64,000 nt of DNA from Fidelibacterota bacterium (lineage in GTDB: Bacteria; Fidelibacterota; Marinisomatia; Marinisomatales; JABMOV01), in assembly GCA_046861395.1 (NCBI GenBank), contig JBHHUC010000004.1, forward strand, positions 1,985-65,984, given 5' to 3'. The notes below the pieces were generated by a model. That model saw nothing but the letters and a program-made list of their open reading frames with translations, was not told the origin of the DNA and did not search any database. The number at the start of each line of letters is the position of its first letter. Positions within the stretch are counted from its first letter, which is position 1. Made by a program: the position numbers and the translations under genes. Of this stretch, positions 2,624-8,465 are shown in pieces.

Positions 2624-2883
2624 TAGTACGATCATGACAATCGGTCCCGGCAACAGTAATCGATGCGGAGGCATGGGTTAAACCACTTGATTGAAGTTCG
2701 CGCATGATACCCTGAAGCAATGCCACCGATATTAGGCGGATCCGATTCCCTGGAAATGGTACGATTACGGTGTGCTTAAGAGACGGGCCTGAGGAAATGG
2801 TCAACATCCTTCAAATCGGTTGACATGTGTCGCAGTCAAACCCCTAGTCACTTAAATCGTCTTCCGTAATATACAAGGACCGG

Positions 2884-2931
2884 GGAATGCCATGCTGAAG
2901 CGTAACCAGTTTACTGTCATCATGGCATTCC
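2884..2931. repeat. perfect 11-bp inverted repeat (GGAATGCCATG / CATGGCATTCC) with a 26-nt spacer, in the 401-nt spacer between convergent genes
   Basis: Read directly: arms at 2884-2894 and 2921-2931. On the plus strand it is followed by AGACAGATTTTATTAT. Function (terminator, sRNA or protein site) is not established. Confidence 0.5.
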
Positions 2932-3024
2932 AGACAGATTTTATTATCCTGACCTCACAGTCCCGGTACAAGAAAATTAAGATAGATGAATCTAATCATC
3001 GCTCCGTCGCTGATAAGTGCCGGT

Positions 3025-4995
3025 TTATTGAACCAAATTCACATACTGTGAGAGGATTGCCCTGATTGCTTCACCATTATGGATTCCGCGACTACCGTCC
3101 TTGCGAATGGAGTCCAGAGCAGCTCGAATGGATTGTATTTCTTCCTGGGATAATCCGTTTCGTTTTTCTTCCAGGATAGATTCCAATTGCTCCATCTCAG
3201 CCTGGATTTCATCCTGCCATTCGCTGAAATAATCCTCATATTCTTCTTCATGGCAATCCACACAGGAAGCGGCTCCAGGACGAATCACCGGTTCGTCCTT
3301 TTCTCCGGCGTGACAGCCCAAGCAGTCTACGTCACCCTGTTCCATGAAGTCGGCCTCAATGTCCACCGCCAGATCAATGGATCCTTCATAGATTTCAGTC
3401 TGTAAACGATGACATTTTTCGCAGGAAACTTTTTCCTGGGTATGGTGACAATTCAGACATTCTGAACGGGTAATAGTCGTTTGTCCGTGGTTCTGCCGGT
3501 TCGAATGACAGGTGGAACAAGGTAATTTATTGTTATTGATATGAATATCATGACTGAAAGTAACTCCAAAGGCTTTGACGTCAACTTTTTCCTGGCCGTA
3601 GTGGCAATTGACGCATTCCGATGGTATCAGCTGGCTGTATTCGGATAAATCGGGTGAACATCCCTCCACTCCGATGAGGTCGGTAATCTTCTGTAAATCA
3701 TCCGATGCTTCCACCAGCAGCTTATCGGAAAAGGCCACATTGTGAACTACATTCCCGTTAAGGACCAGTTGGTAATTGTATTCCGCGGATGCTAAGGGTG
3801 GATTAATTTTTGCAAGAATTTCATCGGAATAATCCGCCGTCTGAATAATCTCCCTTACCTTAGCAAGACAATCCCCCACCAGGGTCAGTTTTTCTTCCAT
3901 GATGGATTCCCAGCGATCGAACAATTTGGCGTATCCGGTGCCGTGACAGCGTTCACAAGATTCTCCCTTGGCCCGGGACACTTTGTCGATCACTGAACGG
4001 GACGTTGATTCATGGAAAATATGGCAGGCCTGGCAATTCAATCCGGCCTCAAACATGGGATTGGGCAGTTGATAATCATGCATTGTATTGCGACCGGTAA
4101 ATAGGGTCAGCTGCTCCGTATGTTCCGATTCATGGCAACTGTTACACTCCGGCAATATGTCATCCGTTCGGGCAATGGATTTATGCTGGATACTCGTGTG
4201 GCAGCTCTGGCATTCCACTTTATGATCCGTGATATGATTCTTATGGATGAATTCCACATCGGAATACTTTTCCAGTTTTTCAATTTCCGCATGACAGACA
4301 CTGCAGCGGTTTTCAGGAACACTTCCGTCACCAACCTGCATTTCCCCGTGGCATTTCTGGCAGGTTATATTCTGTTCCAGGACATAAACATGGTCATAGG
4401 GTACGTCCGGTGTTTCTTCTGTCTTTACGGGTGCATTATGGCAATTGGTACATGAATTAATCGATTCCGTCAATTCTGATTGCTTGAAATGGCACAGGAA
4501 ACAGGTGTTTTTAGTAACTGAAATATGTTCCCCCTGAACAATCTGTGAATGACAACTGGTACAACGGAGCTTCTTGTTCCGGCGCAGTACCGTCAAATGC
4601 GGTTCATGGTCGAAAATGATGCCTTCCCTGAATTCAATTTCACCTTTCAAATTACGTTCCACATGACAGCCGGAACGCAAACAGGATGCATCTTCGATTT
4701 CGGCCCAGGGTTTTGATTTTTTATAGACCCCGGTCATATAGTTCACGACCATGGAAGCGGCTGTCAGTTTCCCCTTAACCTTGGATTTGAAGCCGGGTGG
4801 AAAATGACAGTCGGTACAGGTAACGTCGGCGTGCGAAGACGTTTTCCAGGCCGCGACATAGGGTTCCATAAAATGGCAGGTTGAACAAAAGGCAGGTTTT
4901 GATGTTACTTCAATAAGTCCGAATACGAATATCCCCCCCACTATCAGAATACCGGTAAATAGGAGCAACATACGTATCGTATTTTTCGTAGTCAT
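3025..4995 (-). CDS. membrane-anchored multihaem cytochrome c with a NapC/NirT/NrfH-type N-terminal module (17 CXXCH + 1 CX4CH)
   Basis: 656 aa. A single N-terminal TM helix (LLLFTGILIVGGIFVFGLI) is followed at once by CSTCH..W.TSSH..CTDCH. I counted 17 CXXCH motifs plus CLRSGCH. There are two haem-free helical segments of 109 and 74 aa. Confidence 0.9.
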   Translation of the reverse strand: MTTKNTIRMLLLFTGILIVGGIFVFGLIEVTSKPAFCSTCHFMEPYVAAWKTSSHADVTCTDCHFPPGFKSKVKGKLTAASMVVNYMTGVYKKSKPWAEIEDASCLRSGCHVERNLKGEIEFREGIIFDHEPHLTVLRRNKKLRCTSCHSQIVQGEHISVTKNTCFLCHFKQSELTESINSCTNCHNAPVKTEETPDVPYDHVYVLEQNITCQKCHGEMQVGDGSVPENRCSVCHAEIEKLEKYSDVEFIHKNHITDHKVECQSCHTSIQHKSIARTDDILPECNSCHESEHTEQLTLFTGRNTMHDYQLPNPMFEAGLNCQACHIFHESTSRSVIDKVSRAKGESCERCHGTGYAKLFDRWESIMEEKLTLVGDCLAKVREIIQTADYSDEILAKINPPLASAEYNYQLVLNGNVVHNVAFSDKLLVEASDDLQKITDLIGVEGCSPDLSEYSQLIPSECVNCHYGQEKVDVKAFGVTFSHDIHINNNKLPCSTCHSNRQNHGQTTITRSECLNCHHTQEKVSCEKCHRLQTEIYEGSIDLAVDIEADFMEQGDVDCLGCHAGEKDEPVIRPGAASCVDCHEEEYEDYFSEWQDEIQAEMEQLESILEEKRNGLSQEEIQSIRAALDSIRKDGSRGIHNGEAIRAILSQYVNLVQ

Positions 4996-5140: not shown

Positions 5141-5971
5141 TCAGCTAGGTGCAATGATTCCATTGTGACAAACCGGGCAGGATACGGTTATTTTTCCTTG
5201 TTCCCCTGATCGCGTATGGCACGAAGTGCAATAGATGCCCACGGTGTTTTCCTGCTCGGTATCGGTTTCTGCCTTGGCATGGTAATAGGCATGGCAATTT
5301 GTGCAGCGCTGGTCCAGCAGATAGGCTGTACCGTGGAATTGTTTCTGTTCTTCAATGGTGGCTGTGGAATCCACCGGTGTTCCCACCCAGATCGCCACAG
5401 GCGGGTGTCCACTTTCACCGCCTTCGTGGCAGGAATAACAGGAAATGCCTGTAATGCCCCCCTGATAATTGCTGCCATGACAAGCCTGGCATTTCTCAAT
5501 CCCGAAATCCCCGATACTGGCCATGTGAGAATAAGTGGAATCGGGGTTGGTCCATCCGGCGGTATGACTCTGTGCCCCGAGATAATGGCAACCGCTCTGG
5601 TAGCAGGTCACTTCGGCGATTCCACCCTGCAAAGTGGCGCCGTGGCAGGCTCCGCAAGCCTCCCACCCGAATTGGGATATGGCATCGGGATGGGATGTCC
5701 CGGATACGGTAAATACCCAGCCCTCTTCCTGATGTAAACCGTCCTCTAGATGGCAGTCGGAAGTAAAACAGGACACACCCGCTGATCCTCCCTGTAAATG
5801 TTCACCGTGACAGGGACGACAACTCTCCAACCCCACGACGGATAATTTTTTCATGTGGGAGATGGTTGCCTCGGGGTCAGCCCAGGTATCGGGATGGATG
5901 ATCTCTTCATTCAGTTCCGTGCAAGAAAAAACCAGTACTGAGACAGAGAACAATGTCAGAAATAATTTCAT
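5141..5971 (-). CDS. multihaem cytochrome c lipoprotein (7 CXXCH + 2 CX4CH)
   Basis: Signal peptide with lipobox LVFS|C. Motifs: CRPCH, CFTSDCH, CGACH, CYQSGCH, CQACH, CYSCH, CTNCH, CTSCH, CPVCH. The ORF track starts at GTG 5980; ATG 5971 (MKLFLTLF) forms an ATGA overlap with the upstream stop and is preferred. Confidence 0.88.
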   Translation of the reverse strand: MKLFLTLFSVSVLVFSCTELNEEIIHPDTWADPEATISHMKKLSVVGLESCRPCHGEHLQGGSAGVSCFTSDCHLEDGLHQEEGWVFTVSGTSHPDAISQFGWEACGACHGATLQGGIAEVTCYQSGCHYLGAQSHTAGWTNPDSTYSHMASIGDFGIEKCQACHGSNYQGGITGISCYSCHEGGESGHPPVAIWVGTPVDSTATIEEQKQFHGTAYLLDQRCTNCHAYYHAKAETDTEQENTVGIYCTSCHTRSGEQGKITVSCPVCHNGIIAPS

Positions 5972-6795
5972 TGATGACACCTCAAACAGGTTGGGTTGTT
6001 TTCGTCCAGATGACAGGCTTTACAGGTCATGGGACTATCAGCCGCAGAACTGCCATGTAACCCACCGTCCTCCGGCAGGTTATTGACCCAGTCTGGCAAA
6101 TTATGGTCCACCGGCATATGCTGATTCCGGACATGACAGGTATAGCAACTGGTGGCAATATTATGGCAGGTATAGCAATCTTTGATCCCCAAACGGGATT
6201 CCATGCCGTGGCGAATCATGAAATCGACCGGATGTACGCGGGGTTCGAACTGCTGCAGGGCATGGCATTGGTCACAATAGGATTGCGTGTGGCACATGGA
6301 ACAGTTATTTTCATCTCTACTAACCACTGTGGAACCGTGAATATCTTTCCAACCCGGCATATGGTTTTCCGGTTTATTAATACTGTGGCATTGCCGACAT
6401 TGTGATTCATCCCAAGCCTGATACCGTTCCTCGCCATCATCGACGAGCGTCGCGCCATGACATTTGCCACAGTCCGTAAACCGGGATAAATGCCGTTTAT
6501 GCGAAAAGGGCAATCCGCTGTTATGATGAAATTCCTGGTAGGACAATGGATCATCAGTATTCATATGACAAATCGAACAGTTTTCATCATCCTCGACTTC
6601 GTGACAATCAGAACAGACATCCATGGTGGGGAGAATGCTGTAGTCCAATTGGGTGGATTGGGACACATCACTATGACAAGTGGTACATTCCAGTTCTTCA
6701 TCCTCTACGTGCAGAGGATGGGAAAAACGGATATAATCCGTCGTTTGTCCGCTGAGAATGACGGACAGCATGAGTATGATACTATAACGCGACAT
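5968..6795 (-). CDS. periplasmic multihaem cytochrome c (11 CXXCH)
   Basis: 275 aa with Sec-type signal MSRYSIILMLSVILSGQ and no lipobox. There are 11 CXXCH motifs, about one haem per 25 residues. The start overlaps the upstream barrel-gene stop by 14 nt. Confidence 0.9.
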   Translation of the reverse strand: MSRYSIILMLSVILSGQTTDYIRFSHPLHVEDEELECTTCHSDVSQSTQLDYSILPTMDVCSDCHEVEDDENCSICHMNTDDPLSYQEFHHNSGLPFSHKRHLSRFTDCGKCHGATLVDDGEERYQAWDESQCRQCHSINKPENHMPGWKDIHGSTVVSRDENNCSMCHTQSYCDQCHALQQFEPRVHPVDFMIRHGMESRLGIKDCYTCHNIATSCYTCHVRNQHMPVDHNLPDWVNNLPEDGGLHGSSAADSPMTCKACHLDENNPTCLRCHQ

Positions 6796-7951
6796 GAATG
6801 GTTACTCCTCCCCTTCCGTCCTGGATAAAATATGGATTCGACGCCATCCGGAAATAACTGCGAAAGGCAATATTCCGCATGGGATTCCACTCCAGCCAGC
6901 CATAGATACCATAGGAATTGGCATTTTCGAACCATTCATCCACCAGAACCAGAATATTGGTTTCATAATTCAAACCAACCCTGATTTTACGATGAATTGT
7001 CCGGGTCAAACCGACATTGCCACCGTACCAGGTCCTGCGGCCCTGCGATCCCACCAGTAAGCCCAGGGAATAATCTTTGTAAACTGCGGCACTATGCAGA
7101 TAGGTGGATGGTTCATTTTGAAATCGATATGAATATTGGTTCACTACTGCCAGTTTTCGCCCGAACCGTGACCGGGTCTGGAAGTAAAAGGTCGGCGGAA
7201 TGGTAATACCTTCCTCACTCCAATGAAAGAGTTCCCCAACCATATATCGGCGTTGCTTCAGACCTAATTGCAATAGGTGATTATTCAGATTGTACTGTAG
7301 GGAAAAGCGGAAATTATGGATTCGTTCGCTTTCCTGATCGTAACTGATCTGCTGACTGATCTGGATACCGAAAATGGGATAAGTCCAGGCCAAACCGGTA
7401 AAAGAATGGCTTTCGCCGCCTAACGATTGTGTCCAGTACGATGCCTGAAGATTCCTGAATCGATTTCCCGCAGTCCAGGAAACCAGTACCACGGGATCGG
7501 GTGAAGCAGAATCTCGGGTCAATTCATAAATGGCTTCGAGTCCGGATAAGAATGTGAATCGACCCAGTCGCCGGGTCTTTAACGCATAGGTCAGACCATC
7601 GAAACGCAGGTTATTCATCCGGCTCCAATATCCTTGCCGACCCAAAGCAATTGAATGTGTATTATTCTGATAGCGAATTGATAATTGATACATCCGGAAG
7701 GATTTCGTTAATAGGAGGTTGGTACTCCCTACTTCCAGCAAGGATTGTATGGCAATGTGCCGGGTGGGATCGGCGTGGAATTGCAATACACTGCGCCACT
7801 GGAGATCTTCATCCGCGCTCCAGAGATGTAAGCGGGGTGTGATAAAGGAGCTGGTCAGAGATGTGGTCGTAGCACCATGAACGATTGAAATGAAGACGAA
7901 AAAACACATCAGGCCAGAGCGTCGCAAATTTCGCATGAGCAAGGAATTCAT
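6782..7951 (-). CDS. secreted beta-strand-rich protein, probable outer-membrane beta-barrel (candidate porin partner of the cytochromes)
   Basis: 389 aa with signal peptide MRNLRRSGLMCFFVFISIVHG|ATT. It has many alternating aromatic/polar strand-like segments (YQLSIRYQ, LTYALKT, FRFSLQYNL, FYFQTRSRF, VGLNYETN, YGIYGWLEW) and no Cys or haem motif. No family was recognised by eye. Confidence 0.6.
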   Translation of the reverse strand: MNSLLMRNLRRSGLMCFFVFISIVHGATTTSLTSSFITPRLHLWSADEDLQWRSVLQFHADPTRHIAIQSLLEVGSTNLLLTKSFRMYQLSIRYQNNTHSIALGRQGYWSRMNNLRFDGLTYALKTRRLGRFTFLSGLEAIYELTRDSASPDPVVLVSWTAGNRFRNLQASYWTQSLGGESHSFTGLAWTYPIFGIQISQQISYDQESERIHNFRFSLQYNLNNHLLQLGLKQRRYMVGELFHWSEEGITIPPTFYFQTRSRFGRKLAVVNQYSYRFQNEPSTYLHSAAVYKDYSLGLLVGSQGRRTWYGGNVGLTRTIHRKIRVGLNYETNILVLVDEWFENANSYGIYGWLEWNPMRNIAFRSYFRMASNPYFIQDGRGGVTIHVAL

Positions 7952-8000: not shown

Positions 8001-8465
8001 TTACTGTTCCCGGAGTTTCATTTCGAATAATTCCTTTAAATGTCCCACCTGCCCGGCAGCGCGATACACATTACAGTCGCGACAATCATCCTGCTGACAT
8101 TTATCCGAGGCAACATTCAATTGCCAGCAAGCCTGGTCATTGGAATGGTAGGCCTGACAATTCCGGCGTTCTTCCGGAGCACAGGGTTTTAGGTTCCAGC
8201 AAGGAATCAGGGCCAGTAGACGACGAATACCGGCAATATTCAATTTATGGATATTGATTTGTCGTCGGATACACATGATCCAGTCCAAATCAGAATGGGA
8301 ATACAAACGCCGCCCAGTGGCCGTCTTATGTGGCAATAATAATCCTTCCCGCTCATAAAGGCGTAATGTTTCGGGTGAAACACCAATTTTAACGGCGGCA
8401 ACGCCAATTGTGAAAACTGGTTCTGAGGCTTCAAAAGAGACGGATTGAAAGTCTGGTTGATCCAT
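8001..8465 (-). CDS. MerR-family transcriptional regulator with a Cys-rich C-terminal region
   Basis: The N-terminal HTH FTIGVAAVKIGVSPETLRLYEREGLLLPHKTATGRRLYSHSDL is typical of MerR. The C-terminus holds 7 Cys within about 45 aa (CWNLKPCAPEERRNCQAYHSNDQACWQLNVASDKCQQDDCRDC). Confidence 0.85.
   Translation of the reverse strand: MDQPDFQSVSFEASEPVFTIGVAAVKIGVSPETLRLYEREGLLLPHKTATGRRLYSHSDLDWIMCIRRQINIHKLNIAGIRRLLALIPCWNLKPCAPEERRNCQAYHSNDQACWQLNVASDKCQQDDCRDCNVYRAAGQVGHLKELFEMKLREQ

Follow-up and report, generated by a model that had tools for sequence, protein, structure and literature searches.

What does a haem-free protein of 389 amino acids (aa) do when its gene runs directly into the gene of an 11-haem cytochrome? 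This question is raised by a locus in a 64,000-nucleotide (nt) stretch of DNA, hereafter the window, from a Fidelibacterota bacterium (positions 1,985 to 65,984 of contig JBHHUC010000004.1, assembly GCA_046861395.1). The source genome is a 2.37-Mb assembly, 94% complete. The original prediction had described the protein as a small, family-less β-barrel candidate that is translationally coupled to a multihaem cytochrome, and had suggested that a barrel of this size housing a haem wire would be structurally new. We consider that the protein is probably the outer-membrane subunit of a porin-cytochrome (Pcc-like) conduit, which would carry electrons through the outer membrane of Marinisomatota (SAR406 / Neomarinimicrobiota), and that it most likely sheathes the adjacent 11-haem cytochrome. 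Read in this way, it is a lineage-specific and unannotated example of the known small porin-cytochrome conduits, and no new structural class.

The barrel family and its predicted fold

The genomic span 6782-7951(-) is present in the list of open reading frames (ORFs) of the window as a 389-aa frame, and it is a gene far beyond chance. Read from the sequence, its N-terminus shows the traits of a signal peptide, namely the n-region RNLRRS, a hydrophobic core and small residues in the c-region, and cleavage probably falls between VHG and AT. AlphaFold 2 (AF2) models residues 2-25 of this region as a helix. The sole Cys of the protein is residue 16, within the predicted signal peptide MNSLLMRNLRRSGLMCFFVFISIVHG, which is followed by ATTTS; accordingly, the mature protein of ~363 aa contains no Cys, in line with the mature length of about 365 aa and the absence of Cys described originally. 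The mature protein has a mass of ~40 kDa and a net charge of +12, and its C-terminus, IHVAL followed by the stop, represents a C-terminal hydrophobic signal.

Searches of Pfam, NCBIfam and PDB sequences returned no match for the barrel protein or for a 29-member family profile. In NCBIfam nothing reached E ≤ 1 for the barrel, the family profile gave only noise against PDB sequences, and among the 29 members scanned isolated weak Pfam matches occurred in single members only. On the other hand, the protein is no orphan. A phmmer search of 1.84 billion representative proteins returned 34 clusters (50% identity), 30 of them at E ≤ 1e-10, and the best homologue scores in relatives reach E = 5e-84. 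The description as family-less therefore holds for curated and structural databases and fails in the wider sense. All named family members that were checked are annotated as "hypothetical protein" of Candidatus Marinimicrobia, Neomarinimicrobiota or "FCB group" metagenome-assembled genomes. A separate homologous-protein search returned the query alone, its profile version adding one further member, and a related-locus search with 10 sequences returned 10 loci from genomes and 2 from metagenomes. Of 61 same-order genomes, 31 gave a family hit at E ≤ 1, and in two of these the hit was only marginal. It occurs in 40 of 201 Marinisomatota genomes (39 of the 141 high-quality ones), and was not found in several large clades among these 201 genomes, those with genomes of roughly 1 Mb included. 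On these searches, the family appears so far to be restricted to Marinisomatota (SAR406).

When AF2 was given a 13-sequence family alignment, it produced an N-terminal helix followed by 22 antiparallel strands, with a mean predicted local distance difference test score (pLDDT) of 81.6 and a predicted template-modelling score of 0.69. The modelled strands run from residue 29 to residue 388. The barrel begins 2 residues past the signal peptide, has no periplasmic domain, and its strands are joined by connectors of 2-19 aa; because no connector is longer than 19 aa, the model contains neither a plug nor a constriction loop. On one face of the 22 strands, 54% of the residues are hydrophobic, 23% are aromatic and 5% are charged; on the opposite face, charged residues make up 18% (15 K/R vs 8 D/E) and polar ones 37%. 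This composition was computed on the modelled strands, and it agrees with a check that is independent of AF2: the family-averaged hydrophobic moment of the dyad repeat is 1.00, compared with 0.69 ± 0.05 in shuffled sequences, i.e., ~6 standard deviations higher. Both measures are in agreement with the amphipathic, aromatic-rich strands that had been noticed originally.

Compared with the PDB by Foldseek, the model gave 286 matches at E ≤ 0.001, and all 50 matches listed are outer-membrane barrels with a probability of 1.00, at an identity of 5-12%. FimD and PapC, usher pores with 24 strands, gave the highest template-modelling (TM) scores, 0.47-0.55, and porins of 16-18 strands scored 0.29-0.46. 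With good confidence, we consider that the protein is Sec-exported and is predicted by the model to form a 22-strand barrel with short connectors only, and the barrel candidate of the original prediction is thereby substantiated. Homology to a nutrient porin would have spoken against it, as would homology to a protein that is no barrel, and neither was found.

The barrel diameter was derived from the strand number through the Murzin relation, which gives a C-alpha to C-alpha distance of 39-41 Å for 22 strands and 46-48 Å for 26 strands, as in MtrB. After side chains are taken into account, a lumen of ~28-31 Å is estimated for 22 strands. This estimate of ~2.8-3.1 nm lies above the ~2.5 nm below which the pore had been considered too narrow for a haem-binding polypeptide.

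Coupling to the 11-haem cytochrome

The barrel gene ends within the gene of its neighbour. As had been described, the barrel C-terminus is IHVAL, and the two genes share 14 nt (6782-6795), the barrel stop falling within its neighbour, in which 11 CXXCH motifs were counted. In 20 of 20 loci, the start codon of the cytochrome stands exactly 14 nt ahead of the end of the barrel stop codon, with the overlap consensus xATGTGGCGxTxTAx, which reads x-V-A-(L/I/F)-stop in the barrel frame and M-W-R-(Y/F) in the cytochrome frame. The barrels of the family end in L, I or F, the more distant ones in F. The non-aromatic terminus, which the original prediction had pointed out, is no anomaly and is thus accounted for, because the last four codons of the barrel double as the start of the next gene.

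The 11-haem gene is present in 31 of the 61 same-order genomes, where it adjoins the barrel gene on the same contig in single copy, and the adjacency holds in all 30 other genomes having the 11-haem gene. The exceptions are two genomes (G021 and G040) in which the search picked up only a 26-aa barrel fragment or no barrel, at or close to the end of a contig. Taken together, the overlap and the adjacency uphold the proposed translational coupling. The mature 11-haem cytochrome has 258 residues and a net charge of -24, in which its 22 propionates are not counted. Pfam matches it to Cytochrome_C7 and to the MtrC/MtrF II-IV domain, and a homologous-protein search with it returned 5 relatives, none of which links it to other phyla.

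Shortly before the overlap, the last hairpin of the barrel carries the motif D-G-R-G-G. The GGAGG core of its codons precedes the cytochrome ATG by 11 nt, and it could double as a Shine-Dalgarno site. In this case, D-G-R-G-G may be doubly constrained, by the turn that it forms in the protein and by ribosome binding. In the 21 loci compared, the motif is mostly encoded as GAY GGN AGR GGA GGN, and most of them have the GGAGG core, ~11 nt ahead of the overlapping cytochrome start. One relative (L027) keeps the motif and its codons without a gene overlap, and therefore the constraint at the protein level alone may suffice.

A probable porin-cytochrome conduit and the alternatives to it

Small barrels that serve multihaem cytochromes are known. 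In Geobacter, OmbB/OmbC are 45-kDa barrels with 20 predicted strands; the barrel has been purified with OmaB and OmcB in a 1:1:1 complex of 20 haems, and the OmbB-OmaB-OmcB complex moves electrons across liposome membranes (PMC4282303, PMC4245776). Across the Pcc class, the barrels have 18-22 predicted strands and the periplasmic cytochromes 5-14 haems, the outer cytochromes often show atypical CX3-15CH motifs, and a transcription factor opens the cluster (PMC4282303, PMC4245776). The argument that known sheaths are all much larger, and that this barrel would hence be structurally new, does not stand, considering that Pcc barrels of ~45 kDa, predicted to have 18-22 strands, were already known in 2014.

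The locus studied here shows the architecture of this class: a haem-free barrel, an adjacent Sec-exported multihaem cytochrome, and a lipoprotein multihaem cytochrome in the cluster. Its order is also that of orfR-ombB-omaB-omcB of Geobacter sulfurreducens, where a regulator is followed by a haem-free barrel, a Sec-exported multihaem cytochrome and a multihaem lipoprotein. Like OmbB with its 45 kDa and 20 strands, the barrel is small (~40 kDa when mature), and its 22 strands are within the Pcc range of 18-22; likewise, the 11-haem partner is within the range of 5-14 haems and the outer cytochrome has CX4CH motifs. On the other hand, the locus differs from the Geobacter Pcc in having 11 haems rather than 8, a regulator of the MerR type, a 17-haem NapC/NirT-type protein in the operon and a conserved 14-nt dual-coding overlap, and in belonging to the phylum Marinisomatota. 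Neither phmmer (34 clusters) nor NCBIfam tied the barrel to OmbB (GSU2733), ExtB/E (GSU2644/2726) or ExtI (GSU2939), a result that includes no head-to-head profile comparison. ExtB/ExtE and ExtI are also small porin-like barrels encoded beside multihaem cytochromes (PMC7399161).

A further comparison is with MtrB (PDB 6R2Q; Edwards et al. 2020), which has a periplasmic aperture of ~30 Å and surrounds an MtrA of ~80 x 30 x 35 Å; the first four of its 26 strands make no contact with MtrA and only the last 22 do (PMC7198977). MtrB, too, has been likened to the usher FimD (PMC7198977). Our barrel resembles MtrB in its usher-pore-like shape, and it resembles Shewanella MtrCAB in the proposed arrangement, in which a barrel would insulate a haem wire and a surface lipoprotein cytochrome would cap it. 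Unlike MtrB, with 26 strands, ~700 aa and long surface loops, our barrel is a 22-strand protein of 363 aa in which loops are minimal. Membership in the MtrB/PioB family (models PF11854 and TIGR03509) was rejected, as there was no PF11854 match in the protein, the 29 members or the genome, and as 22 strands and 363 aa stand against 26-28 strands and ~650-700 aa. The 11-haem partner was rejected as a member of the MtrA/DmsE family (TIGR03508), scoring 17 bits against a cut-off of 192.2.

Other barrel classes were also tried and rejected. General and substrate-specific porins (OmpF, OprD/Occ, maltoporin and AlgE) have 14-18 strands and a constriction loop folded inward, compared with 22 strands joined by connectors of no more than 19 aa in our model, and porins of these types gave Foldseek TM-scores of 0.29-0.46 at 5-12% identity. 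A TonB-dependent transporter also has 22 strands, with a plug domain and a TonB box ahead of them, but the present barrel begins 2 residues past the signal peptide and has no Plug or TonB_dep_Rec match in Pfam. A fused cytochrome-porin of the Cyc2 type is not consistent with a barrel that lacks CXXCH and whose only Cys lies in the signal peptide.

Based on these comparisons, the conduit may work as follows. The barrel would be inserted into the outer membrane by the β-barrel assembly machinery (BAM) through its C-terminal hydrophobic signal. From the periplasm, the acidic 11-haem cytochrome would move into the net-basic, loop-free lumen and remain there as an insulated haem wire, and translational coupling would hold barrel and cytochrome at 1:1. 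At the inner membrane, the 17-haem NapC/NirT-type protein would oxidise quinol and span the periplasm, and the lipoprotein cytochrome would dock on the outer face of the barrel and take the electrons at the cell surface. From there, they would be passed to an extracellular or insoluble acceptor, which may be an oxide of Fe(III)/Mn(IV), sulfur or polysulfide, humic matter, or else a partner cell. The conduit could also operate in reverse, and the MerR protein would regulate the operon. The charge complementarity between the barrel (+12) and the two cytochromes (-24 and -21) appears compatible with an acidic wire in a basic lumen.

Several points weigh against this proposal. The alignment behind the AF2 model is shallow (n = 13 sequences), and strands 4-6 and 8 are only weakly dyad-amphipathic in a simple test. 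The lumen width is an estimate from a formula and not a measurement. The cytochrome fit is plausible yet tight, because a lumen of ~28-31 Å nears the MtrA cross-section of 30 x 35 Å. The three-part architecture is not universal, since the lipoprotein cytochrome is missing downstream in three relatives (L006, L010 and L023). The sequence searches also brought up no link between the barrel and any sheath barrel that has been studied by experiment. Finally, complex formation, cytochrome insertion and electron transfer are inferred from gene context and the model, and the 1:1 stoichiometry, the electron direction and the substrate are likewise proposals.

The same observations have to be weighed under other explanations. 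Considering that a rhodanese-domain lipoprotein is encoded directly upstream of the barrel in many relatives, and that in L027 a Psr-like molybdoenzyme, NrfD, genes of sulfur transport and a rhodanese are encoded close by, the barrel may instead be a solute channel that feeds a soluble substrate, e.g., sulfur species, metal chelates or oxyanions, to the periplasmic cytochromes. However, 22 strands without a constriction loop or plug would leave an unselective hole of ~3 nm unless it is filled by a partner, and the strict adjacency and the 14-nt coupling tie the barrel to the 11-haem gene and not to a rhodanese, of which there is none in the window. In addition, no porin or channel family in Pfam, where 29 members were scanned, or in NCBIfam matched the barrel. 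We consequently regard a solute channel as unlikely. It is also rather improbable, in our view, that the barrel acts as an usher-like or Slam-like pore for translocation or assembly, which exports the haem lipoprotein or the cytochrome and is no permanent part of the wire. The lipoprotein cytochrome does need some route to the cell surface, and the closest structural matches are indeed the usher pores FimD and PapC; these matches, however, have an identity of 7-9% and reflect barrel size, and the same comparison has been drawn for MtrB. The protein consists of a barrel only, without the plug or the N- or C-terminal domains of an usher, and it is kept in the three relatives without a downstream lipoprotein cytochrome, whereas its invariant partner, the 11-haem cytochrome, is a non-lipoprotein.

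We give hardly any weight to a soluble or periplasmic β-rich protein or to a spurious gene call. Such a reading would fit the AF2 run on the barrel sequence alone, which gave no fold (pLDDT 31.5), and the curated families, which support no assignment. It is opposed by the confident 22-strand model obtained from the family alignment, by the Foldseek matches, all of those listed being outer-membrane barrels, by the signal peptide, the C-terminal hydrophobic signal and the lipid-like face of the strands, and by conservation in 40 genomes.

We thus favour the Pcc-like conduit. Arbour et al. (2020) list four porin families that serve for porin-cytochrome (PCC) detection, MtrB, OmbB, ExtB/E and ExtI, and they regard these as three or four independent lineages (PMC7399161). 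It is quite conceivable, although we lean slightly to the side of doubt, that the present family is an independently evolved fifth lineage of sheath barrels beside these, confined to Marinisomatota and nearly loop-free, which would give part of SAR406 a capacity for extracellular electron transfer. As a member of a fifth lineage, the barrel would approach a minimal insulated transmembrane wire, because it is almost free of loops and its strand count is about that of the part of MtrB touching MtrA.

The surrounding cluster and its meaning for SAR406

The features of the locus are collected in Table 1. The cluster opens with the MerR gene, which lies 49 nt upstream of the barrel gene and is found in the same position in relatives (L003, L005, L013-L016, L018, L022 and L027). 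The regulator has 8 Cys, and a role as a redox or metal sensor is plausible.

Table 1. Features of the barrel-cytochrome cluster in window coordinates; a slash within a motif marks the predicted cleavage site.
Feature	Position	Strand	Description
MerR-family regulator	8001..8465	(-)	Pfam MerR_1 E = 2e-17; Cys-rich C-terminal part
Barrel ORF	6782..7951	(-)	389 aa, signal peptide aa 1-26, 22 predicted strands, no haem motif
Sec signal peptide of barrel	7874..7951	(-)	aa 1-26, predicted cleavage VHG/AT
D-G-R-G-G codons, last hairpin	6806..6820	(-)	GAC GGA AGG GGA GGA, nearly invariant motif in family alignments
Dual-coding overlap, 14 nt	6782..6795	(-)	barrel ...H-V-A-L-stop and cytochrome M-S-R-Y-S on the same bases
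11-haem c-type cytochrome	5968..6795	(-)	275 aa, 11 CXXCH, Sec signal, no lipobox
Haem lipoprotein	5141..5980	(-)	279 aa, lipobox VFS/C, 7 CXXCH + 2 CX4CH
NapC/NirT-type membrane-anchored cytochrome	3025..4995	(-)	656 aa, 17 CXXCH + 1 CX4CH
Decayed N-terminus of multihaem c / cytochrome b fusion	2634..2951	(-)	2 TGA + 1 TAG in frame

The gene of the haem lipoprotein overlaps the 11-haem gene by 13 nt, and its product, with a net charge of -21, is presumably a cell-surface cytochrome. All of its orthologues in L002-L022 have the lipobox Cys followed by acidic residues within ~7 positions, and examples from the cluster lipoproteins are CTELNEE, CTEEAE, CTENAE and CAEEQ. This acidic stretch recalls the negatively charged export signal by which Bacteroidota target lipoproteins to their surface. 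At the N-terminus of the 17-haem protein, Pfam Cytochrom_NNT (E = 2e-12) and TIGR03153 NrfH (E = 1e-13) were matched, and we propose that this protein may serve as a quinol dehydrogenase and periplasmic bridge. Its orthologues close the cluster in L013, L014, L018, L019, L021 and L027. The arrangement also extends to a distant family member (P0028, only 21% identical), whose locus is headed by a MerR regulator, followed by a 68-aa ORF, the barrel, a 270-aa and a 307-aa cytochrome, and then by a 200-aa tetrahaem-like protein, an 833-aa multihaem c / cytochrome b fusion and a 666-aa NapC/NirT-type cytochrome.

In the window, the 401-nt 'spacer' (2624-3024) after the 17-haem gene contains a decayed remnant of such a fusion gene. 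The remnant matches residues 31-131 of the protein encoded at L013:9225-11747 (tblastn E = 2e-11, 31% identity), and it still reads QDNKICLECHDD, the first haem motif included. An intact copy of the 841-aa fusion gene was not found elsewhere in the 94%-complete genome. In relatives, the fusion proteins are ~835-841 aa long and have 17 CXXCH (L013:9225-11750, L014:9226-11751, L015:9068-11578, L018:8965-11466 and L022:6283-8799), and that of L027 (10703-13204) has 833 aa, its motifs being uncounted. Those of L013 and L027 end in a Ni_hydr_CYTB (cytochrome b561-type) membrane domain. This fusion of multihaem c and dihaem b resembles Geobacter CbcL. As the fusion gene adjoins the NapC/NirT-type gene in the cluster, most relatives have two candidate entry points for quinol oxidation.

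Directly upstream of the barrel, many relatives encode a lipoprotein of ~300-350 aa (L006:402-1379, L010:395-1381, L011:2734-3642, L015:4891-5871, L018:4982-5908 and L022:2348-3397). That of L015, the only one scanned, has a Rhodanese Pfam domain (E = 5e-11). In L027, the Psr-like molybdoenzyme is found near the barrel together with NrfD, genes of sulfur transport and a rhodanese. Both the rhodanese lipoprotein and the Psr-like enzyme are absent from this 64-kb window. Together, the rhodanese lipoproteins and the Psr-like enzyme of L027 hint at sulfur species as a possible substrate.

Beyond the cluster, the genome has ~20 ORFs with at least 3 CXXCH in 2.4 Mb, among them 20- and 31-haem proteins. 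On contig C35 (17294-22579), outside the window, three consecutive cytochrome genes have 20, 31 and 8 CXXCH. For a genome of 2.4 Mb, this trio and a total of ~20 multihaem ORFs represent a high cytochrome load.

The uncultured Marinisomatota (SAR406) abound in the dark ocean, in oxygen-minimum zones and in sediments, and published reconstructions of their metabolism emphasise sulfur and nitrogen respiration. In the literature that we searched, no paper connects a porin-cytochrome cluster with Marinimicrobia, Marinisomatota or SAR406, and multihaem cytochromes are unmentioned in Hawley 2017. Because every annotation of the barrel reads "hypothetical protein" and neither Pfam nor NCBIfam offers a model of it, surveys that look for extracellular electron transfer with hidden Markov models of MtrB, OmbB or Ext proteins would miss it, and a family model built from the barrel alignment would close this gap. 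With 363 residues and minimal loops, and with a partner of 258 residues and 11 haems, the barrel would also lend itself, as a compact target, to a first experimental structure of a Pcc-type conduit. For the organisms themselves, the presence of a putative haem pathway, conserved and complete from quinol to the cell surface, in 39 of 141 high-quality genomes suggests that they may respire, or draw electrons from, insoluble or particle-bound substrates. If the family is indeed a fifth lineage of sheath barrels, part of SAR406 would gain a capacity for extracellular electron transfer that is not described in the literature searched.

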